A DNA stretch of 64,000 nucleotides from a virus (Duplodnaviria > Caudoviricetes): the IMG/VR virus record IMGVR_UViG_3300021425_003554; one strand, 5' to 3'. Below the pieces are notes generated by a model. That model searched no databases and was not told the origin of the DNA. It saw only the letters and a program-made list of their open reading frames with translations. This document shows positions 10,063-28,234 of this stretch, piece after piece. Position 1 is the first letter of the stretch; every line of letters starts with the position of its first letter. The position numbers and the translations under genes were made by a program.

Positions 10063-11364
10063 TTAGTTGTATCTTTTTTTATAAAAGACATCAACATAGT
10101 CCCATTCATAACTCTTAAAAATAACATCAAAATTATAATTATGAGATTGTACAAATTGTAAGGCATCTTCTCTTGCGGCATTCACATATGAAGCACCCGG
10201 AACAATATCCAAGTCTGACCATTTTTTCAGTATAAAGTTATTCTCAACTGTTGGTTTTAGTTTTTTATTATAAAGCAACTTGACTATTTCGCGAAAAGCA
10301 GTTCTATAACATACTTGTGGATCGGTATAAAAAGTTGTCTCTGCACTCAATAAAGAAATATGGTCGTGCTTCTGTGATAGTGTAAAGTCCAGACCTTTGC
10401 CGTCATTTTCTAATGTAAGTTTTTTATTATAAAGTATGATTGCTTGATGTCCGTAAGTGTAATTGATCACAGGATTAAAACAATCAAAAATATAATGTCT
10501 TGGAGATTTCAATGTGTCTGGCACAAAATCAAAAGCAAAATCCTTGTTTACTTTTAGTTTGGCAAACACGGCATAGAAATATTCTGTTTCACTTGCTCGT
10601 GCGGCAGTTTGGTAGGCTTCCTTACGACCTTTGACTCCTTCGATTATGTGAAGTTTGTTTGGTTTTTTCTTTAGATGTTGTTTTAAAAACATCAAATTTT
10701 CTTGTGCCTGCGGTTCTCCGTTGTGTATATAACAAATATCAAAATTTAATTTTTCACTGGGATTATCCATCAACAATGTGGGAGAATATTCGTACAACTC
10801 TTCTTTCATATCAAATCTCGGTACCAATAAATTTAAACGATTCTTGTCCAACACATATAACTTTTGATCTTCCCAAAAACTTGGTATTATGCTATGCTGT
10901 TTTTTGAAATAATAATTTGCATATCTTGTTTTTTGATTTTTTATTTGTTCTGCCAAATTATCAAATGTAAATTTAAATGACGGCCATTCGTTGTATTCAA
11001 AATTGGTATCATGATAGTTTATATCCTTATAATCTCTCAAAAACTTTATATGATTCATTTGAGATTTAAATTCGTTAGTGGGCAACAACATTATATCTCC
11101 CTCTCTCTGTGATTGAGTATTCCATACATGAATTTGTTGTTGTTGGTGTTGATCGGGAATAAAATTAAAATCAAAATGTTGTAAATTTACAAGATCACTT
11201 GTTAACCAAAAAAAATCAGTTTTTACACCATCAACAAAACTTTTAAGGATGTCAAAGTAACTTCCTACAAACGGAGTCGAAAGAGCATAAGGAAATTTAT
11301 TGAATAAAAACTCCTTGTTTTTTTGATCTTTTTGAAAATCAACAATTACACAATCAAATGCCAT
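10063..11364 (-). CDS. glycosyltransferase-like protein (GT-A-like C-terminal domain, DxD replaced)
   Basis: DICYIHNGEPQAQEN...GVKGRKEAYQTAARASETEYFYAVFAK aligns with the 25163-26050 protein, which has DGD at the FAK position. Confidence 0.6.
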   Translation of the reverse strand: MAFDCVIVDFQKDQKNKEFLFNKFPYALSTPFVGSYFDILKSFVDGVKTDFFWLTSDLVNLQHFDFNFIPDQHQQQQIHVWNTQSQREGDIMLLPTNEFKSQMNHIKFLRDYKDINYHDTNFEYNEWPSFKFTFDNLAEQIKNQKTRYANYYFKKQHSIIPSFWEDQKLYVLDKNRLNLLVPRFDMKEELYEYSPTLLMDNPSEKLNFDICYIHNGEPQAQENLMFLKQHLKKKPNKLHIIEGVKGRKEAYQTAARASETEYFYAVFAKLKVNKDFAFDFVPDTLKSPRHYIFDCFNPVINYTYGHQAIILYNKKLTLENDGKGLDFTLSQKHDHISLLSAETTFYTDPQVCYRTAFREIVKLLYNKKLKPTVENNFILKKWSDLDIVPGASYVNAAREDALQFVQSHNYNFDVIFKSYEWDYVDVFYKKRYN

Positions 11365-12424
11365 TGAATTCTTTTATCCTTTTACAAATATAATCAATTT
11401 CACTATCGGTTAGGTATGGATAGATCGGTAAACTTAATGCACGTTTACAAATTTTTTCAGCATTTGGATAAGACGTAAGCCAACCGTGGTTCAAGGTTTT
11501 TGAATAGTGTATTTTTGTTTCTATCCCGTGCTCCTTGAGATACTTTTGTAAATCATCTCTTTTTTCATGTAGCAACACCAGTTTATGATAACTGCTTATA
11601 GTGTTATTTTTAGATTTTATAAATGATTCAGTAGGTAGATTTTTAAAATACCTTTTGGCCACTTTTTCTCTCATACTTTGCAATGAATCAAACTTATCTA
11701 ATAAAAAATTTAATTGTGCTGAATGATCTTCTGGAATCACACTGTTGTAACCATAATCCATGTTGTTGTGTAAGCCGTGTCTTCTTAAACTGATCAAGTT
11801 TTCGTATACCTGTAAAGAATCGGTTAGTATCATGCCGCCTGATCCAAAGCAAGGCATATTCTTCATAGGATCAAAACTAAAGATCGATATGTCACCCAGT
11901 GTTCCAGATGGAATTTTTTTAAACCAGTTTCCTAAATATGCCCCCTGTGACTGTGCGGCATCCTCTATGAGAAATATTTTATTATCTTCGCAATATTCTT
12001 TTAATCGATTGTAGTCCGCTACATTGCCATATAAATTTACGTAAAGTATGGCATTTGGTTTAGTCTGTAAATTTATACTACCAATATTTCCAATGTCGTC
12101 CACATCAACAAAACGTATTTTTGCACCTAACCTTTTGATTGCTCCCGCGGTGGCCACGTAACTTAATGCCGGACACACTATGGTCGACGACCTGTTTAGT
12201 CCCAGTGCCTTCATTGAAAAGTACAGTCCGTCTGTGGCTGATCCCACTCCGACCGCATATTTTCTTTTATATTTTTTGCAAATGTTATTTTCTAATTTTT
12301 TTAGTTCTGCACCTAACAACACATTTCCAGAGCTCCATACTTTTTTCGCTCTACGAGTCAGCCTCCACGAGTATGCATCATACAATCTGTCGACACCGTT
12401 AAATTTTATTTTGTAGCCACTCAT
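11354..12424 (-). CDS. DegT/DnrJ/EryC1/StrS NDP-sugar aminotransferase
   Basis: AVGVGSATDGL, PALSYVAT, LIEDAAQSQGA, FSFDPMKN (PLP Lys), C-terminal LSLPIYP. Confidence 0.9.
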   Translation of the reverse strand: MSGYKIKFNGVDRLYDAYSWRLTRRAKKVWSSGNVLLGAELKKLENNICKKYKRKYAVGVGSATDGLYFSMKALGLNRSSTIVCPALSYVATAGAIKRLGAKIRFVDVDDIGNIGSINLQTKPNAILYVNLYGNVADYNRLKEYCEDNKIFLIEDAAQSQGAYLGNWFKKIPSGTLGDISIFSFDPMKNMPCFGSGGMILTDSLQVYENLISLRRHGLHNNMDYGYNSVIPEDHSAQLNFLLDKFDSLQSMREKVAKRYFKNLPTESFIKSKNNTISSYHKLVLLHEKRDDLQKYLKEHGIETKIHYSKTLNHGWLTSYPNAEKICKRALSLPIYPYLTDSEIDYICKRIKEFNGI

Positions 12425-13343
12425 AATAGTATTCTAGTCCTTGATCAAAAGTTGTTTCTGGTTGATAATTCAATAATTTTTTGGCTCTGGATATATCCAA
12501 TGTTCCTCTACGAGGATAAAGTTTATGAGCACCTGTATCAACTATATCACTCTTACTGCCTGTGAGTTTTATAATCTTTTCTGCCGCCACACGTAATGAT
12601 GTGGCATTGCCCGCAGTAATATTGAAACTTTGATTGGCTTCGTCTGATAATGTTGCTTTTATGATACCTTCCGCTGTGTCATTGATATAAGTAAAATCTA
12701 CTTTGTTGTCACCATCGTGTACTTCTATTGTTTCGTTATTCATTGCTTTCTGGAAAAATTTACTTAATACCCTGTCTTCCATGTCTCCTGGACCATAGAC
12801 TCCGCTCGGTCTTACTATTGCATAATTTATTTTATGTTGAGCGTGATAATGTTTGACGAATCGTTCCGCAGTTAATTTAGATTCTCCATATAAATTGTTC
12901 GGTTTGGTATCTGCGTCTTCTTTGGTTCCATCGGAGAAGTGTCCGTATATCATTGACGAACTAACAAACACAAACTTTTTCACAGGCATATATTGGCAAT
13001 GAGAAAGAAGATTTACTGTTCCTCCTATAATATTTTGTACTCCCACCCACGGATTATTGTTTACTATTTTTGCTCTAGGATATGATGCTAGGTGTATCAC
13101 ATAATCTGGTCTATTTTTAAAAGCAGACAATACATCATCTTGTTTTGTTACATCTCCATTTTTACAATAAACCTTTTTCCAATTTCTCTGTCTCCAAGAA
13201 TATAATTTTTCGAGATCTTTTTCCGAAATCACTCCGTATGTTTCTTTATTATCCATTACTACAACACTATGGTTCATTTCAATTAATCTTTCAACAATCC
13301 TAGATCCTATAAAACCATAACCTCCTGTGACTAAAATTCTCAT
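12399..13343 (-). CDS. NAD-dependent NDP-sugar epimerase/dehydratase (extended SDR)
   Basis: VTGGYGFIGS, SSS, YGESK (YxxxK), GVYGPG, DFTYIND. Confidence 0.92.
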   Translation of the reverse strand: MRILVTGGYGFIGSRIVERLIEMNHSVVVMDNKETYGVISEKDLEKLYSWRQRNWKKVYCKNGDVTKQDDVLSAFKNRPDYVIHLASYPRAKIVNNNPWVGVQNIIGGTVNLLSHCQYMPVKKFVFVSSSMIYGHFSDGTKEDADTKPNNLYGESKLTAERFVKHYHAQHKINYAIVRPSGVYGPGDMEDRVLSKFFQKAMNNETIEVHDGDNKVDFTYINDTAEGIIKATLSDEANQSFNITAGNATSLRVAAEKIIKLTGSKSDIVDTGAHKLYPRRGTLDISRAKKLLNYQPETTFDQGLEYYYEWLQNKI

Positions 13344-14827
13344 AAAACTTTTACTCCATATTTGTTGGTAAATGCTTTACCATCATCTTTGTCATTTACT
13401 ATAGGTTGTCCTTTTATATTCAAACTGGTGTTAAGCAGTATAGGGCAACCTGTTTTCTTTTTCCATTGCGTAAGCAATTCATAAAACCCTGGATTGTCTG
13501 CTTTAGACACTGTTTGAACCCTACTCGTGTTATCGTAGTGTATTATGGCAGGAAAGTCTTTACCATGCGTACAAACCGCTGTGTGTTGCATATAAGGGGT
13601 GTTTTTAACACCTTTAGGTAGGGTAAAATACTCGTTCACATCCTCTTCTAATATGGCTGGTGCGAATGGTCTAAACTTCTGTCTTTTTTTAATACCATTT
13701 ACCAAATCCTTGATTTTTGATCCTCTAGGATCAGCAAGTAATGATCTATTACCAAGTGCTCTTGGTCCAAACTCCGCCCGACCATTAGCCACTCCCACCA
13801 TTTTATTTTCCAACAATTCCTTTATGAGAGCATCCACAGGATATTCTCCCTCTATGTTCGTGCCCAAAAATGGATGTTTCCAATTTAGGTGTCTGTGCAT
13901 CGAAGCGGCTATACAACCCAACGAACTACCCGCATCTCCGGGGTTGGGCATGATCCATGATTTATCGTATATTTTCTTGTTCATTAAGATTGCATTGGCC
14001 ACACAATTTAATGCCACGCCTCCACCATAACATAAATTACGACTTTCACCATATTTGCTCACAGCACGTTGTCCGTCTGGTATGTAAGTCGTACTCCATT
14101 GCCATATATGAGTGAGTGCTTCTTGTATGACTTTTTGAATGGATGCGGCAAGATCCATGGGATCCGCTTCCGGTAACCAATTTCCTATTCCTCTGTGTAA
14201 ATTTCTTTTTAATTCCAGGGTTCGATAATCTAACAATTCATTGTAGATATTATCTCGGTACTTTGGTGTTCCGTATGCTGACATTCCCATCAATATGTAT
14301 TCTTCCTCTGCGGGTTTCAATCCAACTCTTTGTGTAAAAGCAGAATATAAGATTCCCAGTGAATGAGGATATTCCATGCTTTCCAGTTTTTCTATTTCGT
14401 TGCCTTTGGCTTTCCATATAGTCATAGTTTCCCATTCTCCTATGGCATCCACACACAACACCATGGAATCTGTAAAGGGCGATGTGAAAAAACTTCCGGC
14501 CGCATGCGAATGATGATGATCTACATACTGGTCAATTTTGATTCCAAACTGTTTTAAATGTTCCGATGGCAGATTCTGTGTTGTAAAAACTTCCGACCAT
14601 TGTCCCGCTCTAATCTGTCGTTTCTTTTTTAACCATGGTTTTTCATAATACACCACTTTGTCAAAAGGACCATAACTCATTGCCTCGTTCACTATCCCCC
14701 AGTTCAGGTGATGATCATTTTTTATCTTGCTGTATCTCTCGCTATGTGCGGCCCATAGAATATCTCGGCCGTCAACCACAGCCATGGCGGCATCATGATT
14801 CATACAATTTATTCCTAATATTCTCAT
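13340..14827 (-). CDS. NodU/CmcH-family carbamoyltransferase
   Basis: HDAA, SERYSKIKND, HHHSHAA, DAIGE, GGVALN, PGDAGSSLG, EFGPRALGNRS, RPFAP, LNTSLN. Confidence 0.93.
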   Translation of the reverse strand: MRILGINCMNHDAAMAVVDGRDILWAAHSERYSKIKNDHHLNWGIVNEAMSYGPFDKVVYYEKPWLKKKRQIRAGQWSEVFTTQNLPSEHLKQFGIKIDQYVDHHHSHAAGSFFTSPFTDSMVLCVDAIGEWETMTIWKAKGNEIEKLESMEYPHSLGILYSAFTQRVGLKPAEEEYILMGMSAYGTPKYRDNIYNELLDYRTLELKRNLHRGIGNWLPEADPMDLAASIQKVIQEALTHIWQWSTTYIPDGQRAVSKYGESRNLCYGGGVALNCVANAILMNKKIYDKSWIMPNPGDAGSSLGCIAASMHRHLNWKHPFLGTNIEGEYPVDALIKELLENKMVGVANGRAEFGPRALGNRSLLADPRGSKIKDLVNGIKKRQKFRPFAPAILEEDVNEYFTLPKGVKNTPYMQHTAVCTHGKDFPAIIHYDNTSRVQTVSKADNPGFYELLTQWKKKTGCPILLNTSLNIKGQPIVNDKDDGKAFTNKYGVKVL

Positions 14828-15207
14828 AAAGATTCTATATATTTTTTTAATTCTTTATCCTGCACATCGGTAGGTATTTCATTTTTGTAAAATATCCTAT
14901 AACTATCACTGCCATATTTTCCTATTCCGTGTAGATCCGACGCATCTTCACCATCCCAGGTTAAAAATTGCTCGCTCATTTTTCTCAATCTTTCCGATCT
15001 CACACGCCACATTCCCAAAGGTTTTAATAATTTTTGCTGTGCTGATAATCTACCTTTGAGGTAACTTTTGGCATTCGGATATCGTTTGAATAATTCACTT
15101 AAAACACGTTTGGCTTGTTTTCTGTAAGTTTGATTGAGGCAGATAACACCCACCATGTGTTGCCATTTGTTTTTGACCTGCTGTTGTACCATTAGATCTT
15201 CTCTCAT
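14824..15207 (-). CDS. MBD4-like HhH-GPD DNA glycosylase (stand-alone catalytic domain)
   Basis: W..MV..ICLNQT, LLKPLG, HhH LHGIGKYGSDSYRIF and QDKELKKY parallel the MBD4 motifs LNRT, LLKPLG, LHGIGKYGNDSYRIF and EDHKLNKY. Confidence 0.78.
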   Translation of the reverse strand: MREDLMVQQQVKNKWQHMVGVICLNQTYRKQAKRVLSELFKRYPNAKSYLKGRLSAQQKLLKPLGMWRVRSERLRKMSEQFLTWDGEDASDLHGIGKYGSDSYRIFYKNEIPTDVQDKELKKYIESL

Positions 15208-15569
15208 ATCAGTTCTCCACGATCACGCATCTGTTGTCTTATATTTGTTGCGGATATCTTTTGAGTTTCTTCATCTAACACTATTTCTTCTATTTTGTAA
15301 CCCACACCCCTGCCATAACATATGTTTGTTATGTTGGGTACTAGTATCACTTTGAACTGCCCTTCAAACTCGGGATTGAGCCTTTCCTCAATATTTTTCT
15401 TAACAGTTTCAAAATCAAATGGATTGTCATCAACACCTTGTACATCTCTGACCATTATCAATACCTGCCCTGTTTTTTTGTGTATCTCCTGGAACAATTT
15501 ATAGTGCCCGTCATGGAACGGTTGCCATCTTCCTAGCATTTGTGCTGTTGGTTTTTTATTGTCCCACAT
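15204..15569 (-). CDS. HxGH nucleotidyltransferase (cytidylyltransferase/NadM-like)
   Basis: LGRWQPFHDGH motif and C-terminal ISATNIR. Confidence 0.8.
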   Translation of the reverse strand: MWDNKKPTAQMLGRWQPFHDGHYKLFQEIHKKTGQVLIMVRDVQGVDDNPFDFETVKKNIEERLNPEFEGQFKVILVPNITNICYGRGVGYKIEEIVLDEETQKISATNIRQQMRDRGELI

Positions 15570-15993
15570 TTTTCTTCTCCCATATTATATCTCGTATTTC
15601 CTGTGTTATCAAAAATGCCCAAGTCTCAGCATCTTTTGATGTACATCTAAAATCAAACGTTGTCGGTGGCTGAAAAAGTTTGTTGGTGTCCTCAAATCTA
15701 CCCTCTTTGATTGTGTCCATCCATATCAGATAATCTGCTTTGAATTGTGCTCTTGTTTCTTCAGTGGGGCAAACAAAATCAGCGATCACAACTCTGCCTT
15801 TGTCTAACGCCTCTTCGGCGTACGTCCACATCCTCAGTGCTTGTCTCTTTCTGCCTTCGTCTGAGAAATCCCAATCATTGCATTCTTCTCTTATCTTGTC
15901 AGCATTTAGCCATACAGCATTCAACCTTGGTGCTATCATTTTTGCCAATGTAGTTTTGCCCGATCCGGGTAGTCCCATTATCAATATTTTCAT
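15556..15993 (-). CDS. adenylylsulfate (APS) kinase-like P-loop kinase
   Basis: GLPGSGKTT, LNADKIR, DWDFSDEGRKRQ, ADFVCP. Confidence 0.75.
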   Translation of the reverse strand: MKILIMGLPGSGKTTLAKMIAPRLNAVWLNADKIREECNDWDFSDEGRKRQALRMWTYAEEALDKGRVVIADFVCPTEETRAQFKADYLIWMDTIKEGRFEDTNKLFQPPTTFDFRCTSKDAETWAFLITQEIRDIIWEKKNVGQ

Positions 15994-16553
15994 TTTAGTT
16001 TAAAAAACCCTTTCGCTCTTTCTAAATACTTGTTCCATTGTTCCAGTGTAATGTCATATTCAAAATTTTGTGTTGTGTCGTTGCGTTGTAATAGTTTTGC
16101 TCCGTTCTTTATATGAAACCTTTCGGCCATTTCTGTCAAAGGACTTAAAGTGACTAATCTTTCTATGTGTTGTTCTCTTTTAAATTTTTTAAAAATTTCG
16201 TTTAATATGTGTTTTCCGCCACCTTTCATTTTGGCCCAAACTGTATAAGCAACTGCTATTTTTCCCACTATGCCTGCCCGCAACACTGACGGACCGGCCG
16301 CATCACGACTCAACATATCTAGTTCTTCGACTGTTGTGGGGATTTCATTTGTGAATGCTATGCATATGATTGCCATGATATCACCATTTTTGTTTTTGAG
16401 TCCATAAATTTTTCTTCCGTAGATAGTACGAAATGTGAGAGACAATTCCGGTCTCACCGGATCCTCTGTTATATCTATATCATTCATTTCGATCAAACTA
16501 AATTTAGAATTCTTTCGAAAAATATTGTTTATTTTTTCTTTTAATTTTTCCAT
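15990..16553 (-). CDS. miniature malonyl-CoA decarboxylase-like (GNAT-fold) protein
   Basis: ICIAFTNEIP, AVAYTV, LVTLSP and RFHIKNGA parallel the MCD motifs VAL...I, AIFYSI, TLSP and RFHLxNGA. Confidence 0.55.
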   Translation of the reverse strand: MEKLKEKINNIFRKNSKFSLIEMNDIDITEDPVRPELSLTFRTIYGRKIYGLKNKNGDIMAIICIAFTNEIPTTVEELDMLSRDAAGPSVLRAGIVGKIAVAYTVWAKMKGGGKHILNEIFKKFKREQHIERLVTLSPLTEMAERFHIKNGAKLLQRNDTTQNFEYDITLEQWNKYLERAKGFFKLK

Positions 16554-17203
16554 TTTGTAAAAACTACTTCTTTTTTTCTTGATCTTCCAAATTCTTTATA
16601 TCCCACACTGTCTAAAAACTCTATTATTTGTTTTCCTTTTCTTCTTTGTGCTTCATTTTTATGTTCTATTTCCACGTTCAATACACAGTCATTATTTCGT
16701 AGTGTTTCTTCGCCGCCTAATAAGATGTCGTATTCACTACCTTGTGTATCAATCTTTATTAGATCAACATCGGTAAATTTAAAATCATCTAATTTTTTTA
16801 CTTGTAATTCAGATTTATCAACATTATCTTCAAATATTTGATCTCTAAAAAAACTATGTCCTCCTGATGTTGTAGGACTGATATAAAATTCTTTGACTTC
16901 TTCTTTACTACCTAAACCAACTTCATGTAAAGTGAAGTTTTTATAGGTTTTTAAATTTTCTTTAAGACATTTAATATTTGACGGATCCGGTTCAAAAATT
17001 ATCACTTCATTGAACTTATTACAAAAATCTTTGCTCCAAAATCCAATATTGCCACCTATATCAATTGCTTTTCGAAATTGTTTTACTCTGGCCAATGCAT
17101 ATTCTCGTTGAAGGCGTTGATACGTTGTTTCATTGTTGATACGCATCCATTCTTCATAATGAACATCATAGTCTGGCAAAAACCAATTGTGTACTGTTTT
17201 CAT
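16541..17203 (-). CDS. FkbM-family SAM methyltransferase
   Basis: AIDIGGNIG, IFEP, GLG, LIKIDTQGSE. Confidence 0.88.
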   Translation of the reverse strand: MKTVHNWFLPDYDVHYEEWMRINNETTYQRLQREYALARVKQFRKAIDIGGNIGFWSKDFCNKFNEVIIFEPDPSNIKCLKENLKTYKNFTLHEVGLGSKEEVKEFYISPTTSGGHSFFRDQIFEDNVDKSELQVKKLDDFKFTDVDLIKIDTQGSEYDILLGGEETLRNNDCVLNVEIEHKNEAQRRKGKQIIEFLDSVGYKEFGRSRKKEVVFTKWKN

Positions 17204-17204
17204 T

Positions 17205-17309
17205 TTACTTGTAAATAAAAGGGTCTTTTTTCTTTAATTCTTTTAGTCTTTTTCTATAAGCAATTTGTTGCTTTACTTTATCAATCAAAGACCTAATCCA
17301 TTTGATCAT
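17205..17309 (-). CDS. 34-aa basic microprotein absent from the ORF track
   Basis: hand translation MIKWIRSLIDKVKQQIAYRKRLKELKKKDPFIYK; AGGAG SD 7 nt upstream; TAA lies 1 nt before the FkbM ATG. Confidence 0.75.
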   Translation of the reverse strand: MIKWIRSLIDKVKQQIAYRKRLKELKKKDPFIYK

Positions 17310-21871: not shown

Positions 21872-23204
21872 TGTACCATTCTCCTATAATTGGGAAAGTT
21901 TTTTTGAAATCCTTGCCCCTACGTTTGTCATATTGACTATAAAATGCCTTAAAATCTTTTTGTAATTTATCCTGTGTGGCCGCACCTGCGTGTGGTGTTT
22001 TGACCACATCAAGGTAATCTATTAATCGTGTTGTGTGATTTATTTCCATTTGTTCCAACCATTTTTCGTTGTTCGTTAAAAATTTTTCAATGTCACCTTT
22101 AAATCTGTTTCTTAATTCGTCAGGCAATACTAACGGTGATTGGAAACTAGGAAATCTTAATATGTTGAGTGTGTAATTAATCTTTGGTCCATAGACCTTG
22201 CTAGAATGTTTGAACCAAACAATCTTTTCAAGAAATTCCGGTAACGATTCTAAACACAATGCATTGATTGTACACATATTGTGGATCTCTACCGGCACTT
22301 TATCTACCATCATGTGTAACACTCTGCTGAACCAATCTCCATAATCCAATCCATCTCTGATATATTCTGCTTGTTTAAAAGTTGCTTCATTACTGGTGTA
22401 TAAATGAAAGTTTTTAAATCCTTTTAGTTTAGTTTTAAAATCATCGATTATGCTTTGTTTTGCTCCTAGATTAGAATTGATAGCAATACGCATATCTGGA
22501 TTCATTTTATCACCTTGGGTTTCTATCCAATCTAGCAATCTCCATAGGTGAGGAGACATCATTGGTTCTCCACCTGTTATTCTTAGTTCATCTAAAGTTT
22601 TATGTAGGTCCGAATCCCACCATTTAAAAAATGCTTCCACATACGGATTGGTCTCATTTAATTTATACGGTTGTGATTCTTCATGAGAATGTGTGAAATG
22701 ATTACGTCCGTCTGATTTTAAATCTGTATAGGGTCCTTTTTGTTTGATGTCGTTTGCCCACGTCGACGAAAATGCAGGATTACAGTAAGAACAAGCAAAA
22801 TTACAAGTTCTATCAAATGCAATTTCTAAAGTTTTGAGATTGATATCTTCGGTTATAGGAGTCTGGCTTGCTGTTATCATGTCTGCATTAGAATATATTT
22901 TGCTTTTATATACTCTATCGCTTACAGCATCTCTTTTCATGTCCTCTATCTTCCAACAATATTCACAACCTGCGGGTCTTTCTCCCGCGATCATTTTGGC
23001 ACGATCGTTTTTCTTTTCCGGAGTATTGTGTAACAATTTTGGATTCTGCGTTACTTTAGCAAGATCAACTTTGTGTGCTGGCGGATGGTGGCAACTTGTG
23101 GTCATGCCAGATCCCAGCCATATGGTAGCATTGTACCATTTTGCTCCACAAAACGATGGAGATATCGAATCTAAAAACTGTTTTTTGTAATCTATATCTT
23201 TCAT
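21861..23204 (-). CDS. radical SAM protein with N-terminal auxiliary-cluster domain (type B)
   Basis: CGAKW...SCHHP...CEYC, then CNFACSYC, ITGGEP, INSN. Confidence 0.9.
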   Translation of the reverse strand: MKDIDYKKQFLDSISPSFCGAKWYNATIWLGSGMTTSCHHPPAHKVDLAKVTQNPKLLHNTPEKKNDRAKMIAGERPAGCEYCWKIEDMKRDAVSDRVYKSKIYSNADMITASQTPITEDINLKTLEIAFDRTCNFACSYCNPAFSSTWANDIKQKGPYTDLKSDGRNHFTHSHEESQPYKLNETNPYVEAFFKWWDSDLHKTLDELRITGGEPMMSPHLWRLLDWIETQGDKMNPDMRIAINSNLGAKQSIIDDFKTKLKGFKNFHLYTSNEATFKQAEYIRDGLDYGDWFSRVLHMMVDKVPVEIHNMCTINALCLESLPEFLEKIVWFKHSSKVYGPKINYTLNILRFPSFQSPLVLPDELRNRFKGDIEKFLTNNEKWLEQMEINHTTRLIDYLDVVKTPHAGAATQDKLQKDFKAFYSQYDKRRGKDFKKTFPIIGEWYNGI

Positions 23205-23803
23205 TATATGTACTTAAACACTTTCTCTGCCCACTGTTTATTTTGTTCAATCGTCATATGATTTATTTTTCCTTTGCCCCAATGATCTCGGCCACCACTG
23301 AAACTGAACATACTTTCATCGATGAATATTCCTGTTGTTAATTTTATATTGGCATTTTTGTCTGCCGTTTCAAATGGTTTAAAACTCCACATCTGTATTA
23401 TTTTTTTGTTTTGTAATTTAGATAAAACGTGTTGATCATAATATTTCAAAGCATACTCGTATGCTAATTCGTCCTTGTCATAATTGTGTAAATGTTTCCA
23501 ATAATTTTCCAGTGTTTTATAGATGTCTGGGTCTACTCCTTCCAGTGGTTCTGTGTTGGCACTCAATATCAAATTCGGATGGTATAGTCTATATGGTTCT
23601 GTCCAACAAAATATCGAATAATCCGGAACACGATCTTGTTCTATCAATTTGTTAAACCTAAAAAATACACTCCATATGCTTCTTCCAGGTTCGCCAAACC
23701 ATCGTATACGATCACAACCTAATTTCTCTTGAAGTATATTACACCAACTCTCGGATTGATTGCTGGCACAGAAACTATCTCCAAAAAATCCTATTGTGCT
23801 CAT
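23204..23803 (-). CDS. SGNH/GDSL-hydrolase-like protein
   Basis: IGFFGDSFC (GDS block I), GEPGRS, terminal INH motif. Confidence 0.6.
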   Translation of the reverse strand: MSTIGFFGDSFCASNQSESWCNILQEKLGCDRIRWFGEPGRSIWSVFFRFNKLIEQDRVPDYSIFCWTEPYRLYHPNLILSANTEPLEGVDPDIYKTLENYWKHLHNYDKDELAYEYALKYYDQHVLSKLQNKKIIQMWSFKPFETADKNANIKLTTGIFIDESMFSFSGGRDHWGKGKINHMTIEQNKQWAEKVFKYI

Positions 23804-25170
23804 GAGTTTCTACACTCCTCCCAAAACTCTCGCATTTCAGGAAATATTTTTTCAAAATTTGTTCTTCGTCTACGATCGTGTTCTGTAAAAAATGTGTAAA
23901 AATTCTTTTTTTGTTTTTTATCATCGGTATAATTTTTTTGCCAATAAGAAAGATTACGTTGCATTTTTTGTATTTCAAAATCTTTAAACAACGAAAAATC
24001 TTTTTGATTCTCTCCCGAATTCGATTTCATCCATTCAATATTGTCTTTGTGTATCTCTTGATACGATTCGGGTAATAGTGTTACTTGTTGCCATTCTGGT
24101 TGACGTAGTATGGGTATATCGAACCATACTCGTTGATACGTGGTTGAATGTTTTTCTCGAAGATGCTTGATATCTTCAAGTAACTTTCTTAGACCTGTGA
24201 CACTAAGATTGTTATAGGTTATTATGAAGGTAACTGAATTACGTACAGGAATCATTGTCAAAAAATGATCTACGTTGTCTAACATTTTGTTGTAATCGAG
24301 ACCATTACGAATATATTCTGCTTGTTTACCCCAGGTATCTACAGAGACGAACTGCATGAAATGTTCTACTTTTTCTTCATGGCAAATACGACTAACTGCA
24401 TTAAAATATTTTGTTTTTAACTTGGGATCAGGTGGACACATATTCGAAGTTACATTTAGGTGTAGATCTTTTTTTGGATTATCTATGATGTAATCAAATA
24501 CCTTGTAAGTGTTCACATCCATCATGGGCTCTCCTCCGGTCATTCTAAAATGTTTCAATCCCTTATACAATTCAGGCCACCATTTCCAGAATGCTTCCAC
24601 ATACGGATTAGATTCTCTATTTGGTATGGGTTGTCTTCTTCCTGAGAAATGTGTCGGGTCATTGTGTACAGGTGATGTAGGATATCCACCGTACATATTG
24701 ATTTCTTTACCCCACGTTGTTGAAAATTGAGGAGAACAATAGGAACAAGCAAAATTACAGGCATTGTTAAAATTGACTTCTACATAACGAGGAGTATGTG
24801 TTGTATTAAAAGGATCTTGCTTAATTTTATCAAAATCCTCCATGGCCCATGGCTCACCAGAACGATAGTGTCGGTCACTCATTTCGCCAGTGTCTTCCAT
24901 TTTCCAACAGTAAGAGCAACCTGCAGGTCGTTCACCTGCGATCATTTGTTTTCGTTGTCGAATTTTTTCTTCGGTGTTGTGCAATGCCGCTGGATTTGAT
25001 GCCAGCGAATCTTTATCAATCTCATGCAGTGGAGGATGATAACATGAATTGGTTAATCCAGTGGGTAGATGTAAAGACACCTGATTCCATTTTGCTAGAC
25101 ACATCGTAGGCGAAATTGAAAGTAATTTTTCCTTGGCTTTCTCGGCATCTGATTTGTAAACACTACTCAC
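23800..25170 (-). CDS. radical SAM protein with N-terminal auxiliary-cluster domain (type B)
   Basis: CLAKW...SCYHP...CSYC, then CNFACSYC, MTGGEP, VTSN; ORF track start 25236, GTG at 25170 overlapping the upstream stop is likelier. Confidence 0.9.
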   Translation of the reverse strand: MSSVYKSDAEKAKEKLLSISPTMCLAKWNQVSLHLPTGLTNSCYHPPLHEIDKDSLASNPAALHNTEEKIRQRKQMIAGERPAGCSYCWKMEDTGEMSDRHYRSGEPWAMEDFDKIKQDPFNTTHTPRYVEVNFNNACNFACSYCSPQFSTTWGKEINMYGGYPTSPVHNDPTHFSGRRQPIPNRESNPYVEAFWKWWPELYKGLKHFRMTGGEPMMDVNTYKVFDYIIDNPKKDLHLNVTSNMCPPDPKLKTKYFNAVSRICHEEKVEHFMQFVSVDTWGKQAEYIRNGLDYNKMLDNVDHFLTMIPVRNSVTFIITYNNLSVTGLRKLLEDIKHLREKHSTTYQRVWFDIPILRQPEWQQVTLLPESYQEIHKDNIEWMKSNSGENQKDFSLFKDFEIQKMQRNLSYWQKNYTDDKKQKKNFYTFFTEHDRRRRTNFEKIFPEMREFWEECRNS

Positions 25171-26050
25171 GATCCTGCACTCCTTTATTAACATAAGGTT
25201 TTTGACAAAATTTAAAAAAACGACTGCCTTCGGCATTAAAAGTGCTGATTGGAATATCTAATTTTTGTTTCAGACTATTTCCGTACATTTCTATATCTTC
25301 ATCCAAATCATTGATTGCATGAAAAAAACTTTTACAACTGTCTAAGTTTCTAACATTTTCTAAATTAAAATTACTTTTTATGGTTGCTTGATAACAACCA
25401 ACTCTTGCACCTAACATGGCGTATTTTCCATATTCAACATCTGCCCCGATGCTTTGCCATATGGACAGTATTCGTAAATTGTGTTGATGTATCTTATTTG
25501 AAAAATCCAAAGGTGAAATTCTATTACCTTGATCTAAACTCATCTTTACACCTTCTCGAAATCCGGCAACAAATGCCTGCTCCGGTGAAAAGTTGATTAC
25601 TGTATTACTATAAACATTATGTAAATTTTCATGAGGTACTGTCCAACAAAAATCTATTTTGGCTTTTTCGTCCTCTGCATTTTCATGGGTTTTCATTTTC
25701 AAACAGGTTTCTTTATCCCATCCAACGACTCCTCCGTTGCCATATATCAATCCGTTTATTGAATTTTTTGCTTTCCATCTGTGTACTGCTTTTTTATTAG
25801 TTTTCGTCCAATCTAATTTTTGTAATAAAAATGAAGGATCAATAACATTGTCTCCGTCTATGGATATAAAAAAATCTGTTTCTGCGATCTCTGCCGCGGC
25901 TTTGTGTGCATTATCAAAACCTTTGACTCCATCCACACGTTTTGCCCAAGGCACGATGTTTAATAGATTAGCATAATTTTCTTCCTTGTTGGGTTCATAA
26001 AAAGATATGAACACAAAATCTAAATCACTTATTCTAACGGTGTCTGCCAT
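25163..26050 (-). CDS. GT-A-fold glycosyltransferase-like protein
   Basis: DFVFISFYEP..EEN, GVKG, FFISIDGDN (DxD); start at ATG 26050 preferred over 26083. Confidence 0.7.
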   Translation of the reverse strand: MADTVRISDLDFVFISFYEPNKEENYANLLNIVPWAKRVDGVKGFDNAHKAAAEIAETDFFISIDGDNVIDPSFLLQKLDWTKTNKKAVHRWKAKNSINGLIYGNGGVVGWDKETCLKMKTHENAEDEKAKIDFCWTVPHENLHNVYSNTVINFSPEQAFVAGFREGVKMSLDQGNRISPLDFSNKIHQHNLRILSIWQSIGADVEYGKYAMLGARVGCYQATIKSNFNLENVRNLDSCKSFFHAINDLDEDIEMYGNSLKQKLDIPISTFNAEGSRFFKFCQKPYVNKGVQDRE

Positions 26051-26334
26051 GTGTACCCCCCTTCCTTGAATCCTACGGGCCAATATGGATCTCCATCTAA
26101 GAACACATATCCTTCTTTTGATTTTTTAAGTTCATTAAATATTCTGCCGGTCTTTTTGATAGGTTTTTTTACAATCTTGCCATCACTGTCCAACATCCAT
26201 TGTTCTATTCCTGATTTTTGTATTTCTAACATTGTTTCGTGAGACACTTCCATAATTTTTCCATCTATGGTCACCAGATCTGGTTTTCTTTTCCTAGGCT
26301 TGAAATTACCTAATGCGTTAAAAAATTCGGTCAT
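26029..26334 (-). CDS. hypothetical protein
   Basis: 101-aa ORF with GGAG SD, overlapping both neighbours. Confidence 0.65.
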   Translation of the reverse strand: MTEFFNALGNFKPRKRKPDLVTIDGKIMEVSHETMLEIQKSGIEQWMLDSDGKIVKKPIKKTGRIFNELKKSKEGYVFLDGDPYWPVGFKEGGYTWQTPLE

Positions 26335-27124
26335 TCAATAACTCCGTTGTGTCTTTTTGATAATAATGCCATACCCTGTTTAATCTCTTACCTCCCAGAT
26401 ACATCCTATCAGCGAGTCGTGTTGGATAAAGATAATTGTGTTGATCCATGACACTTTCTGTGTTGTTTATTCCAGGTTTATTATGTATAAATTTAAACCA
26501 TGGATAGTCTACTAATAATTGATTCGTGGGATCTAAAATTCTCAATGAAAGAGCATAAACTACATCTGTTGTCGGTACGTCGTCATGACAATTAATCAAC
26601 ATTTCATCTCTTACTGTGCTCCAATTTAGTGTAATTGTTTTGCAAATATCAAAAAATTTTTTAGATAAAACACTTTTTCTAAAATAAAACATTCCGTTAT
26701 AAACATCTGCCAATAAATTTTTATTAAATATTTTTCTATAAGGACTATTATTAATAATTTCATCTTTATAATTTCTACAATTGATCGAGAACACCATGTC
26801 GTGCTGTCCTAAATGATTCCACCATTCGTCAGTGCAGGATGTGAATAACATATCGGCTTCTAATTTAATTGTATGTGTAAACGGTGTCAAACCAAATGCT
26901 TTGTATTCGTTTGAAAATTTGTTTGAATGCTTCTCGCTGTTGTCATCTTTTAAAACAACAACATAATCTATATAATCGCTATTAATTTTTGTCAGTTTAT
27001 CCGTGACAACACATATTAGGTTTTCATTATTGTGTTGTTTAATAGATTTTGCCAACTCGATACTTAATTTAGCATAATCTGTTTTTTCGTTGTTCTGTGC
27101 AAACCATAGAAAACCTTTAGACAT
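26318..27124 (-). CDS. glycosyltransferase-like protein (GT8-like)
   Basis: DYAKLSIELAKSIK, TPFTHTIKLEAD (E/DxD), YNGMFYF; paralogous to 27117-27866. Confidence 0.6.
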   Translation of the reverse strand: MSKGFLWFAQNNEKTDYAKLSIELAKSIKQHNNENLICVVTDKLTKINSDYIDYVVVLKDDNSEKHSNKFSNEYKAFGLTPFTHTIKLEADMLFTSCTDEWWNHLGQHDMVFSINCRNYKDEIINNSPYRKIFNKNLLADVYNGMFYFRKSVLSKKFFDICKTITLNWSTVRDEMLINCHDDVPTTDVVYALSLRILDPTNQLLVDYPWFKFIHNKPGINNTESVMDQHNYLYPTRLADRMYLGGKRLNRVWHYYQKDTTELLNDRIF

Positions 27125-27866
27125 CGATTGGTATCTCCTTGTTTAGAATGTGTACATCTTGTTTTTCCGTCATACCAACACAATCAGCATATCGGAACTT
27201 AATTGAAGAATCATTAATTTCTAATATGTCAACATCTGTGGGTAACATACTCATTTTAACCGGTATGTAATTTTTGATGTTCAGTTGATGCATAGCAATC
27301 GCAAAAGCATAATCATTGCGGAAGTTCTTAAAATCTATCCTGTATAGATTACAAAAATAATTGTAATTGTGTTGTATGTGTTGTATCAATCGAAATATGT
27401 TTTCGGTTGTTTTATTTTTTTTAAAAATAGTCACTGTTGCCCAAACAATAGGTAACATACTTAACGAACTGTATTCGAATTTATTTCTACCGGTTAGGTC
27501 ATGTACTTTGTTGTGTAATAAAAAATCATAACCAGTATCAACAAATTGTAACAAATTATCTGTGTAAACAAAATAGTCGGCATCTAATAGTATTGTTGTG
27601 TCATAGGGAGTGTACTCATAGGATTTTGCTCTTTCTAAATTGAACCAATCCACAGTTTTATTTTTATAAACTCTTTTATTTCCTGACTTATTTTCTATGA
27701 CCACTGTGCTGTCAACATCCTTTAAAAATTTTTTTGTCGATTCATTAGTGACCACTGTCACGGGAAGATTTAAATGTTTTTTGATCTGCTGAATGCAGAA
27801 ATTAGTAACTGTATGATATTTGATTTTTTCCGAATCAAAACAGTAGATTAATACACCTGCTGACAT
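27117..27866 (-). CDS. glycosyltransferase-like protein (GT8-like)
   Basis: TPYDTTILLDADY (DxD), WATVTIF, RNDYAFAIA. Confidence 0.65.
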   Translation of the reverse strand: MSAGVLIYCFDSEKIKYHTVTNFCIQQIKKHLNLPVTVVTNESTKKFLKDVDSTVVIENKSGNKRVYKNKTVDWFNLERAKSYEYTPYDTTILLDADYFVYTDNLLQFVDTGYDFLLHNKVHDLTGRNKFEYSSLSMLPIVWATVTIFKKNKTTENIFRLIQHIQHNYNYFCNLYRIDFKNFRNDYAFAIAMHQLNIKNYIPVKMSMLPTDVDILEINDSSIKFRYADCVGMTEKQDVHILNKEIPIDV

Positions 27867-27867
27867 A

Positions 27868-28182
27868 TCAAACCCTTTTTTTTAATTGATTATATAATTG
27901 ATGATATTCGTTTAGTGCTTCTTGATTTCGTTTTAACAGTGTTTCTAAAAATTCTTCTGGGTTGGTTATTTCGCAGGGATTTTCGTTGCTGTCTAGAATG
28001 AAAAATGTTTTGTGTGTTTTTTTTAATGTGTCAACTAGGTTGATGGTATCGGCATCCGCAGAAAATATAGAACCGTTATAAGCAACAACTTGTCTGGACC
28101 TTGCTCTTTCCAGAGCATTCCTTTTGGCCGTTGCTACTTCGAAACTTAGATCCGATTGTTTTTTTAAGTCAGATAATTCCAT
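27868..28182 (-). CDS. hypothetical protein, first gene of the modification operon
   Basis: 104-aa ORF starting 6 nt after a -10 box. Confidence 0.7.
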   Translation of the reverse strand: MELSDLKKQSDLSFEVATAKRNALERARSRQVVAYNGSIFSADADTINLVDTLKKTHKTFFILDSNENPCEITNPEEFLETLLKRNQEALNEYHQLYNQLKKRV

Positions 28183-28188
28183 ACCACA

Positions 28189-28217
28189 ATTATAACATAA
28201 TTATGGCTAGAACTCAA
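28189..28217 (-). promoter_or_regulatory. sigma70-type promoter of the modification operon, leaderless
   Basis: minus strand TTGAGT(28217-28212)-17 nt-TATAAT(28194-28189), then 6 nt to ATG at 28182. Confidence 0.65.
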
Positions 28218-28234
28218 CCTGGTAAAATTAATTA

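Follow-up and report, generated by a model that had tools for sequence, protein, structure and literature searches.

The stretch analysed here, a window of 64,000 nucleotides, carried an operon of 22 head-to-tail genes on the minus strand, running from 28182 to 10063 and comprising 21 open reading frames of at least 100 amino acids and one of 34 amino acids in the ORF list. All of its junctions (21/21) were overlaps or gaps of no more than 1 nt. The single, co-oriented and mostly overlapping operon of the preliminary description was retained with 22 genes in place of about 23, and the tail-fibre genes placed directly ahead of it were found immediately upstream. The features were as follows.

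29208..30818, minus strand: tail-fibre-like protein; Peptidase_G2/intramolecular-chaperone region at the C-terminus
28235..29206, minus strand: fibre-like protein, 323 aa, 27% Ser+Thr, conserved directly 5' of the promoter; candidate glycan acceptor
28189..28217, minus strand: sigma70-like promoter, TTGAGT / 17 nt / TATAAT, extended -10, TGTTATAAT
27868..28182, minus strand: first gene, 104 aa; weak, sub-threshold DUF1577 match
27117..27866, minus strand: phrog_1903 protein, paralogue of 26318-27124; GT-A-like as a language-model lead
26318..27124, minus strand: phrog_1903 protein; language-model lead to nucleotide-diphospho-sugar transferases, candidate
26029..26334, minus strand: 101-aa ORF conserved in the close group; no function assigned
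25163..26083, minus strand: GT-A fold (GT2-like) glycosyltransferase, invariant D-G-D motif in the alignment
23800..25236, minus strand: radical SAM 1, N_Twi_rSAM, NF033640 327 bits
23204..23803, minus strand: SGNH-like protein, N-terminal FFGDSF block with GDS motif; variable among relatives
21861..23204, minus strand: radical SAM 2, N_Twi_rSAM, NF033640 299 bits
20579..21871, minus strand: radical SAM 3, N_Twi_rSAM, NF033640 399 bits
19279..20643, minus strand: radical SAM 4, N_Twi_rSAM, NF033640 316 bits
18095..19294, minus strand: radical SAM 5, N_Twi_rSAM, NF033640 361 bits
17293..18102, minus strand: SGNH/DUF6071-like protein
17205..17309, minus strand: basic micropeptide, 34 aa; C-terminal tail near-invariant, ending DPFIYK
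16541..17203, minus strand: FkbM-family methyltransferase, accessory
15990..16553, minus strand: 187-aa ORF, accessory; no function assigned
15556..15993, minus strand: P-loop kinase, APS-kinase-like, accessory
15204..15569, minus strand: small HIGH-type nucleotidyltransferase, accessory
14824..15207, minus strand: MBD4-like HhH-GPD DNA glycosylase, rare accessory
13340..14827, minus strand: NodU/CmcH/TobZ-type O-carbamoyltransferase, core
12399..13343, minus strand: SDR NDP-sugar 4,6-dehydratase/epimerase, accessory
11354..12424, minus strand: DegT/PseC-like NDP-4-keto-sugar aminotransferase, accessory
10063..11364, minus strand: GT-A paralogue, 433 aa, extended at the C-terminus, accessory; last operon gene

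The host-type, sigma70-type promoter proposed ahead of the operon was recovered within the sole true upstream intergenic gap (28183-28234). Promoter-like matches across the region were not above chance (75 versus 79 in shuffles); the site itself was kept in at least 20 related loci and was identical at every base in relatives whose proteins were only 50-65% identical. A GC hairpin (terminator hairpin) lay just 5' of the promoter in distant loci. The ATG of the first gene began 6 nt past the -10 element, so this gene, with 48-65% identical orthologues in the close group, is probably leaderless. Contigs from four salt-marsh RNA libraries, which may include DNA carry-over, covered the operon, and in these libraries the depth of 28235-29206 was 3-10x that of the operon, with the same possible carry-over.

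The operon was common to hundreds of uncultured aquatic jumbo phages. Across 80 IMG/VR loci the conserved core consisted of the glycosyltransferase-like genes, five radical SAM genes, SGNH-like genes, the 34-aa peptide and the carbamoyltransferase, of which the radical SAM enzymes, the carbamoyltransferase and the peptide were the invariant parts. FkbM, the kinase and nucleotidyltransferase, the glycosylase, SDR and DegT were variable accessories. The synteny survey called for in the preliminary description revealed conserved clustering adjoining fibre genes, and the order of fibre gene, ORF 28235-29206 and operon was kept in every locus with enough flank.

Five radical SAM enzymes had been reported from the sequence, and all five were full-length members of NF033640 (N_Twi_rSAM), with scores of 299-399 bits where the cut-off is 170 bits. 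The set is anciently diverged, with an N-terminal twitch-type auxiliary cluster; pairwise identity was only 20-28%, and CX3CX2C, GGEP and four N-terminal Cys were retained in each. Every related locus carried a separate orthologue for each of the five, and the orthologue of radical SAM 1 was found in all loci compared. Radical SAM 2, with 462 viral relatives, was the paralogue common to Ralstonia phage RsoM2USA (53% identity to RsoM2USA_202), and radical SAM 3 had 6438 database relatives. The nearest folds to the model of radical SAM 2 were peptide/protein-modifying SPASM/twitch enzymes (SkfB, anSME, SuiB and CteB), with weak matches at TM ~0.35; equally weak neighbours (TM ~0.35) included the sugar- or nucleotide-acting DesII, BlsE, viperin and MoaA. 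One relative encoded about 14 radical SAM copies together with a SAM synthetase of its own, which fits heavy SAM use; its other N_Twi_rSAM copies lay amid replication and packaging genes, without the peptide. In a literature search, no paper was found naming NF033640 or N_Twi_rSAM.

The four glycosyltransferase-like proteins reported earlier fared unequally. The predicted structure of 25163-26083 (pLDDT 85) matched BcsA, TarP, TarS, RmlT and PBCV-1 A64R in Foldseek, which upheld a GT-A fold; its orthologues were about 298 aa, so that its true start is probably 3' of the listed TTG. The product of 10063-11364 gave no family match in profile searches and was tied to 25163-26083 as a paralogue via cross-matches among loci. 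The other two, 27117-27866 and 26318-27124, stayed leads, as neither hhalign nor Pfam scans run on 17 orthologues supported a glycosyltransferase identity. No flippase, polymerase, initiating phosphoglycosyltransferase, exporter or lipid-carrier gene was found in Pfam scans of the operon genes, and cytoplasmic glycosylation is plausible on that account.

Every locus with sufficient flank retained the carbamoyltransferase, a full homologue of NovN, GdmN and TobZ (PDB matches down to E 2e-77). Family matches were likewise obtained for the FkbM methyltransferase, SDR epimerase, DegT aminotransferase, kinase and nucleotidyltransferase named in the preliminary description, and SDR and DegT form a genuine NDP-4-keto/4-amino-6-deoxyhexose branch. 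The MBD4-like assignment held across the entire glycosylase domain (E 2.4e-19), while the "MCD-like" label was unsupported, ORF 15990-16553 having no family match in profile searches. The glycosylase was seen in 2 further loci; its tally among close relatives was 3 of about 20, with the kinase/nucleotidyltransferase pair in a minority, and the pair recurred adjoining peptide and carbamoyltransferase modules. Both SGNH-like proteins were also recovered: 17293-18102, and 23204-23803 with its GDS motif, which had a counterpart in loci L015, L018, L019 and L021 and a DUF6071 protein at the equivalent position in at least one relative.

The 34-aa peptide was the most conserved element of the cluster. 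Of 88 loci, 70 encoded it, among them loci with enzymes only 40-60% identical, and Y18, R19, L25, K27, D29, P30, F31 and Y33 were invariant across 34 variants. Variation was 0.37 at third codon positions, compared with 0.13-0.17 at the first and second, and each of the three stop codons occurred; this synonymous variation indicated that selection acts on the protein. A separate, independent scan with the peptide as its sole anchor retrieved at least 120 viral stretches. A carbamoyltransferase gene lay downstream on the same strand in 58 of the 80 loci examined for one, and in none on the opposite strand. Among 162 distinct peptide junctions, the next ORF started inside AAATGA in 81 and at -4 to +12 nt in 118, and the peptide is usually translationally coupled to the following gene. 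The same peptide was encoded, unannotated, by the soil Ralstonia phage RsoM2USA in a minimal version of the cluster, with one radical SAM enzyme, three DUF6071 proteins (neighbours _200, _201 and _203 match PF19547), the peptide and a carbamoyltransferase; no homologue of the operon's glycosyltransferase-like genes was found in the 40 kb compared. Many peptide and carbamoyltransferase modules had no homologue of the operon's glycosyltransferase-like or radical SAM genes within 6 kb. A 70-aa Cys-rich protein bore the same tail, with no carbamoyltransferase within 6 kb. The tail contained Asp-Pro and a polybasic run and was free of Ser, Thr and Cys, so its glycosylation would need Tyr, Lys, Arg or a radical-installed group. 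The peptide had played no part in the earlier reading of this DNA.

Since the operon encodes a tiny, near-invariant peptide alongside five unusual radical SAM enzymes, sugar enzymes and a carbamoyltransferase, its product is probably a modified glycoconjugate or peptide of a kind undescribed for viruses. Which molecule is modified, and what role the product has, we infer. The best reading, to be taken as tentative in all its parts together, was a cytoplasmic, peptide-centred pathway of carbamoylation, radical and glycosyl tailoring, encoded in a single biosynthetic operon that is transcribed from the host-type promoter apart from the fibre genes beside it; the source is an uncultured jumbo phage, T4-related and aquatic (salt-marsh or marine). 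The evolutionary heart of the operon would be a two-part module of the basic, about 34-aa DPFIYK peptide and the NodU/TobZ-type carbamoyltransferase encoded downstream. In this lineage the module would have been extended with five radical SAM enzymes, SGNH/DUF6071-like proteins, and glycosyltransferase-like proteins (one verified, up to three more); in the source phage the NDP-4-amino-6-deoxyhexose branch (SDR and DegT), the methyltransferase and the kinase/nucleotidyltransferase pair may provide further supply. The peptide tail may serve as substrate or covalent handle, and the carbamoyltransferase could O- or N-carbamoylate it, by analogy with HypF on the C-terminal residue of HypE, after which the carbamoylated tail would be modified by radical chemistry and glycosylation. 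The overall logic would be akin to a RiPP or carrier-peptide pathway such as mycofactocin (MftA/MftC/MftF). Several observations argued against a peptide-centred pathway: RiPPs do not usually pair an invariant core with tailoring sets as variable as these, the conserved tail offers no Ser, Thr or Cys, the weak radical SAM folds include sugar- and nucleotide-acting enzymes, and the relative's additional radical SAM copies stand without the peptide. Neither a RiPP recognition element nor a leader peptidase or exporter was found.

The main rival, which we regard as unlikely, is essentially the principal reading of the preliminary description: the glycosyltransferases would glycosylate Ser/Thr-rich fibre-like or other virion proteins, the radical SAM, SGNH, FkbM and carbamoyltransferase proteins would tailor the sugars, and the peptide would be a minor partner or regulator of the carbamoyltransferase. 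The conserved fibre-gene adjacency favours such a virion target, as do the Ser+Thr content of 28235-29206 and its highest RNA-library depth, the GT-A fold with DxD and its match to a PBCV-1 capsid glycosyltransferase, the sugar-nucleotide branch, the lack of export and lipid-carrier genes in the Pfam scans, the DesII and BlsE neighbours, and the sugar or small-molecule hydroxyls targeted by the nearest solved carbamoyltransferase homologues. This rival, however, leaves the top conservation of the peptide unexplained, two of its four glycosyltransferases are leads only, and the promoter is distinct from the late fibre genes. The peptide and carbamoyltransferase also occur in many modules with no glycosyltransferase-like or radical SAM homologue within 6 kb, and in RsoM2USA with no glycosyltransferase-like homologue in the 40 kb compared. 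Of the modified glycan that the operon was said to build, the SDR and DegT branch and at least one GT-A enzyme stood, whereas epimerase, DegT, FkbM, kinase/nucleotidyltransferase and MBD4-like genes proved to be variable accessories and not core.

Tight coupling and a conserved C-terminus also fit a small subunit of the carbamoyltransferase or a ribosome-arrest leader peptide. The 34-aa ORF would then set translation of the carbamoyltransferase and downstream genes, and the operon would yield a soluble small molecule or alter a glycan of the host cell as an auxiliary metabolic function. This seems improbable. The peptide is always co-directional with and 5' of the carbamoyltransferase, its conserved C-terminal part is about the length of the ribosomal exit tunnel with a variable N-terminus, the Asp-Pro and polybasic run suit arrest, the next start overlaps the stop in half of the junctions, and the invariant codons exclude Shine-Dalgarno room. 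Yet FkbM, the 187-aa ORF, kinase and nucleotidyltransferase are inserted between peptide and carbamoyltransferase here and in close relatives, nearly all operon genes overlap regardless, and neither a known arrest motif nor a conserved RNA element was found; the Cys-rich protein with the same tail also speaks against it. Still less probable is DNA hypermodification, the other branch of the preliminary reading, in which kinase, nucleotidyltransferase, MBD4-like glycosylase and carbamoyltransferase would have modified bases as their substrates and might, for instance, carbamoylate or glycosylate 5-hydroxymethyl pyrimidines, with the basic peptide aiding DNA binding. It draws on a published phage carbamoyltransferase that makes 5-carbamoyloxymethylcytosine (PMC8670742), the intact glycosylase translationally coupled to the carbamoyltransferase, the P-loop kinase in the same block, the strongly basic peptide, and the DNA-metabolism genes around the relative's other radical SAM copies. 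The 5hmC type was disfavoured by the absence of a ThyA-family hydroxymethylase from the genome searched, that of a 95%-complete, core-bearing relative, by ThyA in only 3 of 40 peptide and carbamoyltransferase contigs, where the E-values were of the kind that ordinary thymidylate synthase gives, and by the scarcity of the glycosylase and kinase/nucleotidyltransferase genes. No Tet_JBP match was found in five records, in a search that matched no control genome either.

Mycofactocin is made from the MftA peptide by the radical SAM/SPASM enzyme MftC, the GT2 enzyme MftF and a methyltransferase. The operon resembles it in its short peptide, whose C-terminal aromatics are the site of chemistry in mycofactocin, its auxiliary-cluster radical SAM enzymes, GT-A glycosyltransferase and methyltransferase in one operon, and its cytoplasmic setting without exporter. 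It differs in lacking any sequence relationship, in the N-terminal position of the auxiliary-cluster domain, in its five radical SAM enzymes and carbamoyltransferase, in its phage host and in a peptide that is a putative substrate; no MftB-like chaperone (RRE), MftE peptidase or MftD was found here. With HypF-HypE it shares a YrdC/Kae1-type carbamoyltransferase, whose profile retrieves HypF (E 1.4e-4), and a proposed target at the extreme C-terminal residue of a partner. HypF, however, carbamoylates the C-terminal Cys thiol of a 35-kDa protein, whereas the putative partner here is a 34-aa peptide ending Tyr-Lys, and the operon enzyme is far closer to NovN, GdmN and TobZ. Mycobacteriophages glycosylate capsid and tail proteins with virus-encoded enzymes, and chlorovirus PBCV-1 A64R, one of the fold matches, is a virus-encoded cytoplasmic GT-A enzyme without lipid-carrier or export machinery; unlike the operon, neither system is known to contain radical SAM enzymes, a carbamoyltransferase or a conserved micropeptide. 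In the MetaGPA study, phage 5-hydroxymethylcytosine carbamoyltransferases, which are NodU/TobZ-family enzymes abundant in environmental viromes like the one described here, specifically co-occurred with a ThyA-like dCMP hydroxymethylase, and also with dCMP deaminase and MazG-like genes (PMC8670742), whereas the operon clade co-occurs with the DPFIYK peptide and not with these genes. As for NF033640, its members form a conserved five-gene tandem array here, and the one bacterial copy examined lay between metH and metF, an unrelated context.

The operon occupied the minus strand from 28182 to 10063, where 21 ORFs, each 100 aa or longer, were arranged head to tail, and the sole apparent hole among them was filled by a 34-aa ORF. 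All 21 junctions overlapped or had a gap of at most 1 nt, so the one co-oriented, mostly overlapping operon proposed in the preliminary description was borne out, with 22 genes (21 plus the 34-aa ORF). The main features of the operon and its upstream flank were as follows:

52460-55933, minus strand, baseplate wedge gene (phrog_10646, E 1.8e-292)
38010-52457, minus strand, 4815-aa ORF, lying between the baseplate wedge gene (upstream of it) and the fibre genes (downstream)
29208-30818 and 35811-37337, minus strand, tail-fibre-like proteins with Peptidase_G2/intramolecular-chaperone ends, upstream of the operon
28235-29206, minus strand, Ser/Thr-rich protein of 323 aa (27% Ser+Thr), no detectable family
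27117-27866 and 26318-27124, minus strand, phrog_1903 pair
23800-25236, 21861-23204, 20579-21871, 19279-20643 and 18095-19294, minus strand, radical SAM enzymes (rSAMs) 1 to 5
17205-17309, minus strand, 34-aa peptide with the tail DPFIYK
13340-14827, minus strand, carbamoyltransferase (CT)

No other element of the cluster was as conserved as the 34-aa peptide, which was found in 70 of 88 loci, those of a distant group among them. Its ORF was also predicted by a gene caller in a Tara relative, and none of the Pfam-like or PHROG families covered it. Residues Y18, R19, L25, K27, D29, P30, F31 and Y33 were invariant in 34 distinct variants, and the tail was unchanged from marine to soil phages; the N-terminal half was variable, yet amphipathic throughout. 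Across 159 distinct 54-nt tails, variation at the third codon position reached 0.37 compared with 0.13-0.17 at the first two, and every Pro codon, every Ile codon and each of the three stop codons was in use. Because of this third-position variation and synonymous codon usage, the gene was taken to be translated and under strong selection at the protein level.

The association of the peptide with the CT was evaluated by scanning IMG/VR with the back-translated [K/R]DPFIYK-stop as the sole anchor, and at least 120 stretches were recovered. In 58 of the 80 fetched peptide-anchored loci, a CT homologue followed the peptide on the same strand; no locus had one upstream or on the opposite strand, and most of the remaining loci had a downstream flank too short for the CT to be judged. 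Within 6 kb, an rSAM was found in merely 17/80 of these loci and a kinase in 6/80, five of the latter with the nucleotidyltransferase. Since the rSAM was so seldom nearby, the peptide and CT constitute the primary module, and the rSAM/glycosyltransferase (GT) array is a lineage-specific extension. The start of the next ORF lay inside AAATGA at 81 of 162 distinct junctions and within -4 to +12 nt at 118 of them. According to CheckV completeness, nearly all peptide contigs were fragments of genomes of ~350 kb.

The same peptide was detected in the cultured Ralstonia jumbo phage RsoM2USA, where the gene is unannotated and fills the gap between RsoM2USA_201 and _200:

MG752970.1, about 125,891-126,001 (about 20892-21002 of fetched locus L001), RsoM2USA peptide

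This copy surfaced only by a local relaxed search, the tblastn of the peptide against cultured phages having given no match because the query was too short. The minimal module of RsoM2USA consisted of three DUF6071 proteins, one rSAM (53% identical to rSAM 2), the peptide and a CT (45% identical). No such peptide was found with the cyanophage and pelagiphage CTs (27-36% identity). In the window, the short peptide gene was co-located and co-oriented with modifying enzymes, as is expected of a RiPP locus; no RRE, leader peptidase or exporter was matched in any operon gene by Pfam, NCBIfam or PHROG. The complex prediction for the peptide, rSAM 2 and CT had a score of 0.00 and was counted neither way.

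The conservation survey was carried out by tblastn with all operon proteins over 80 fetched loci. A fixed core was revealed, comprising the fibre gene, ORF 28235-29206, the two phrog_1903 genes, the GT-A gene, five orthologous rSAMs and the CT, and it persisted in contigs of 190-330 kb whose proteins were just 30-60% identical to those of the window. Two of the five rSAMs exchanged order in the distant group. The variable genes were FkbM, a 187-aa ORF, the kinase and nucleotidyltransferase, the MBD4-like gene, the SDR, DegT and the second GT-A-like gene. The conserved clustering in related genomes, whose absence would have told against the preliminary reading, was thus clearly found.

All five rSAMs matched NF033640 (N_Twi_rSAM) over model positions 1-398 with 299, 316, 327, 361 and 399 bits, compared with the curated cut-off of 170 bits. 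The C146-x3-C150-x2-C153 and G206-G207-E208-P209 motifs and C33, C52, C93 and C96 were invariant across the five paralogues, and a Pfam SPASM match was detected at the N-terminus of three of them. Since the CX3CX2C and GGEP motifs and the four N-terminal Cys residues were kept at a pairwise identity of 20-28%, all five look active and anciently diverged. The model of rSAM 2 (pLDDT 80) had SkfB, anSME, SuiB and CteB as its closest solved folds, followed by MoaA, DesII, EpeE, viperin and BlsE, with a TM of ~0.35. SkfB, anSME, SuiB and CteB all act on peptides or proteins, and the fold neighbours of the predicted structure therefore lean toward a peptide or protein substrate, a lean rather than a result.

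Clustered at 50% identity, the N_Twi_rSAM family comprised 18,752 representative clusters, with many fused doubles among them, and no paper naming NF033640 or N_Twi_rSAM was found in the literature. For rSAM 2, 462 relatives were present in IMG/VR, and for rSAM 3 more than 6,400 in a large protein collection, where Tara and other marine samples were the main source. One related genome, G003 (IMGVR_UViG_3300023174_000039; 331,654 bp, ~95% complete), carried ~14 N_Twi_rSAM genes above the cut-off in at least six separate places (loci L221-L224), and several of these copies had terminase, RecA-like and helicase genes around them. The genome also encoded an S-adenosylmethionine synthetase of its own (L221:14043-15143), ~450 nt downstream of one rSAM. 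Besides three mis-binned phage contigs, the genome scan for bacterial N_Twi_rSAM genes yielded one locus from Chitinophaga. In this locus (L085, from MAG G002), a gene 40% identical to rSAM 3 was placed between metH and metF after two small ORFs; the MAG held at least four copies above the cut-off, and this single bacterial context offered no substrate clue. The three contigs (L082, NHDJ01000025.1; L083, NHCU01000062.1; L084, NZIN01000062.1) were Mediterranean contigs in Verrucomicrobia, Betaproteobacteria and Rickettsiales MAGs (TMED/MED) and held the phage cluster at ~75% protein identity. Because the cluster adjoins a fibre gene there, these contigs almost certainly represent jumbo-phage DNA that was binned in error.

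The CT contained Carbam_trans_N and Carbam_trans_C (150.6 and 179 bits), which placed it in the NodU/CmcH/TobZ family, and its solved homologues were NovN (E 2e-77), GdmN (E 7e-73) and TobZ (E 4e-51). Most of the other enzyme names in the preliminary description were likewise upheld by family matches: the five full-length rSAMs, the FkbM methyltransferase, the kinase as an APS-kinase-like P-loop kinase, the nucleotidyltransferase as a 121-aa HIGH-type protein, the NDP-sugar epimerase as an SDR 4,6-dehydratase/epimerase, and DegT as a DegT/PseC-like aminotransferase. The two SGNH-like proteins also stood, ORF 17293-18102 being DUF6071/GDSL-like and ORF 23204-23803 beginning with an FFGDSF block. 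The MBD4-like assignment was retained as well, since residues 12-124 of the HhH-GPD protein aligned with 20-133 of 4ew4 (MBD4) at E 2.4e-19 over the whole glycosylase domain. Its helix-hairpin-helix LHGIGKYG was identical to that of MBD4, and the Asp of QDKELKKY aligned with the Asp of PEDHKLNKY, which we take to be the catalytic Asp of MBD4. The "MCD-like" label for ORF 15990-16553 had no match in any family library and found no support.

The count of four GT-like proteins was upheld in half. ORF 25163-26083 had a predicted GT-A fold (pLDDT 85) with a Foldseek probability of 0.94-0.99 to BcsA, TarP, TarS and RmlT, also matched the PBCV-1 capsid GT, and was the only ORF in which a GT-A fold with a DxD motif (invariant D76-G-D78) was found; ORF 10063-11364 is its paralogue. 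A protein-language-model (Atlas) lead alone pointed to the phrog_1903 pair as GT-A; the PDB profile search gave no match for it, nor did Pfam scans of 17 orthologues or an hhalign comparison with the verified GT-A family. By sequence, PDB profile searches with ORFs 25163-26083, 26318-27124 and 28235-29206 returned nothing. The sugar branch is genuine but optional. Among the family matches of the 22 genes (Pfam, NCBIfam and PHROG, several ORFs being without a family), there was no initiating phosphoglycosyltransferase, Wzx/Wzy, flippase, polymerase or ABC exporter, and these matches did not make up an O-antigen or capsule-type polysaccharide locus. The operon products look cytoplasmic.

Upstream of the operon, the 52-nt gap at 28183-28234 contained TTGAGT, a 17-nt spacer and TATAAT with an extended -10. 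Such a match by itself carries little weight, because promoter-like matches across 20 kb (75) were as frequent as in shuffles (79.4). The order of TTTACCAGGTTGA, a conserved spacer, TGTATAAT, six bases and ATG was kept in ~20 relatives with proteins 50-65% identical, and distant loci had a GC-rich hairpin and T-run immediately ahead of it. On these two grounds the sigma70-type element named in the preliminary description was accepted as a real host-type promoter that sets the operon apart from the fibre genes. Given that the ATG lies only 6 nt past the -10 element, the mRNA of the first gene is probably leaderless. The T4-type late promoter TATAAATA occurred once in the window compared with 6.3 expected sites, the Rfam scan of the window detected no RNA family, and further copies of the operon promoter motif were not above chance with a search pattern one base out of register with the real site. 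In four salt-marsh metatranscriptome libraries, contigs covered the operon in many short pieces at a depth of 2-10, and the contig over ORF 28235-29206 had a depth of 14-47 (3-10 times the operon) and ended near 28130. These depths fit a division into separate units and high expression of the fibre-like gene, with the qualification that the contigs give no strand or transcript ends and that DNA carry-over is possible.

T4-type baseplate genes were also present upstream on the same strand, and the baseplate wedge protein grouped the phage with the T4-related jumbo phages Rak2, PA5oct, Atu_ph07 and SCTP-2 at 32-38% identity. The near-identity DNA search of the phage collection gave no match, no cultured phage being close at the DNA level, and the nearest record (G001) was a 34-kb fragment. 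Between the fibre genes, a minus-strand block (31189-32885) contained an Asp/Arg beta-hydroxylase-like gene (32208-32885), a short-chain dehydrogenase fragment-like gene (31649-32233) and a 156-aa ORF; it was conserved in relatives at 49-81% identity and may encode protein-modifying enzymes for fibres. A 471-aa protein (32878-34293, minus strand) among the fibre genes matched Hom_end-associated Hint at residues 332-358, though weakly and below the threshold (E 0.0028).

The peptide C-terminal tail is preferred here as the thing worked on, because this is the simplest mechanism that uses the cytoplasmic look of the products, the optional sugars, the pairing of peptide and CT, and the invariant tail. 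The tail would be carbamoylated on Tyr33 or Lys34 and, in the lineage of the window, would then be altered by radical chemistry and glycosyl transfer. HypF, which acts on the C-terminus of HypE, is a precedent for such carbamoylation, and the logic is close to that of mycofactocin, in which a peptide with a C-terminal Tyr is combined with an rSAM/SPASM enzyme, a GT2 and a methyltransferase. Tailoring centred on the peptide tail by carbamoylation, radical and glycosyl steps is plausible, held at somewhat less than even confidence. The fuller proposal, that the tail is a substrate or covalent carrier for a dedicated CT, and in this lineage also for the five rSAMs and GTs, in a hitherto unrecognised RiPP or carrier-peptide natural-product pathway of jumbo phages whose product, a carbamoylated, cross-linked or glycosylated peptide or a molecule derived from it, is made during infection, is put forward as a tentative possibility. 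The main rival is the virion glycan of the preliminary description, with the peptide as a partner of the CT; the operon is invariably adjacent to the fibre genes, and the highly expressed, Ser/Thr-rich ORF 28235-29206 is a candidate acceptor for the glycan and may represent a major component of the virion or its fibres, but the genes that carry the glycan argument were accessory ones and not part of the core. This rival was regarded as rather doubtful. It is unlikely that the peptide is an arrest or leader peptide or a small subunit, with a small molecule or host glycan as the product.

The preliminary description had also offered DNA hypermodification, for which the MBD4-like glycosylase and the kinase could be considered. 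The published phage CT for 5-carbamoyloxymethylcytosine co-occurs with ThyA-like dCMP hydroxymethylase, dCMP deaminase and MazG-like genes, and CTs in unmodified contigs adjoin GTs (PMC8670742). No ThyA-family gene was found in G003, which has the core. As regards the thymidine hypermodification pathway (5-HMUDK kinase and aGPT-Pplase, with a 5-hmdU source), the operon kinase had generic P-loop kinase matches only, and a ThyA-like hydroxymethylase was missing from G003. ThyA was present in 3/40 contigs with peptide and CT, with E-values typical of ordinary thymidylate synthase, and the co-occurrence of CT and 5hmC source that marks the published system was not seen in the relatives searched. 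Tet_JBP had no match in G003-G006 and RsoM2USA (five records), the control genomes being equally without a match, and the glycosylase occurred in just 3 of ~20 close relatives. From the missing ThyA and Tet_JBP matches and the rarity of the glycosylase, DNA modification was disfavoured and is rated very unlikely, a judgement that rests on relatives rather than on the window's own complete genome.

All the enzyme families, phage glycosylation islands and phage CTs are already known, so the finding is not categorically new. Three features were undescribed in the literature searched: the conserved array of five N-twitch rSAM genes, the scale on which it occurs (viral contigs in the hundreds, and as many as ~14 copies with metK per genome) and the invariant micropeptide coupled to a CT. 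Together they form a specific, testable hypothesis on a large orphan enzyme family. If true, the N_Twi_rSAM family, so far uncharacterised, would gain its first defined role or substrate, and a new class of virus-encoded chemistry, post-translational or on glycoconjugates, would be added in a phage lineage that abounds in marine and salt-marsh metagenomes. The hypothesis would also imply a widespread viral RiPP or carrier-peptide system, with a two-gene module of micropeptide and CT wholly missed by current annotation. If this reading holds, phage CTs adjacent to ThyA act on DNA, whereas the peptide marks the present clade instead. As a cultured system with the minimal module and the peptide, RsoM2USA is usable for separating these readings and is a tractable laboratory entry point.

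The tail sequence was also seen in another protein. At four loci (L100, L107, L131 and L164) with no CT within 6 kb, a Cys-rich (Zn-ribbon-like) protein of 70-72 aa ended in KKDPFIYK, an architecture reminiscent of LysW and other amino-group carrier proteins.
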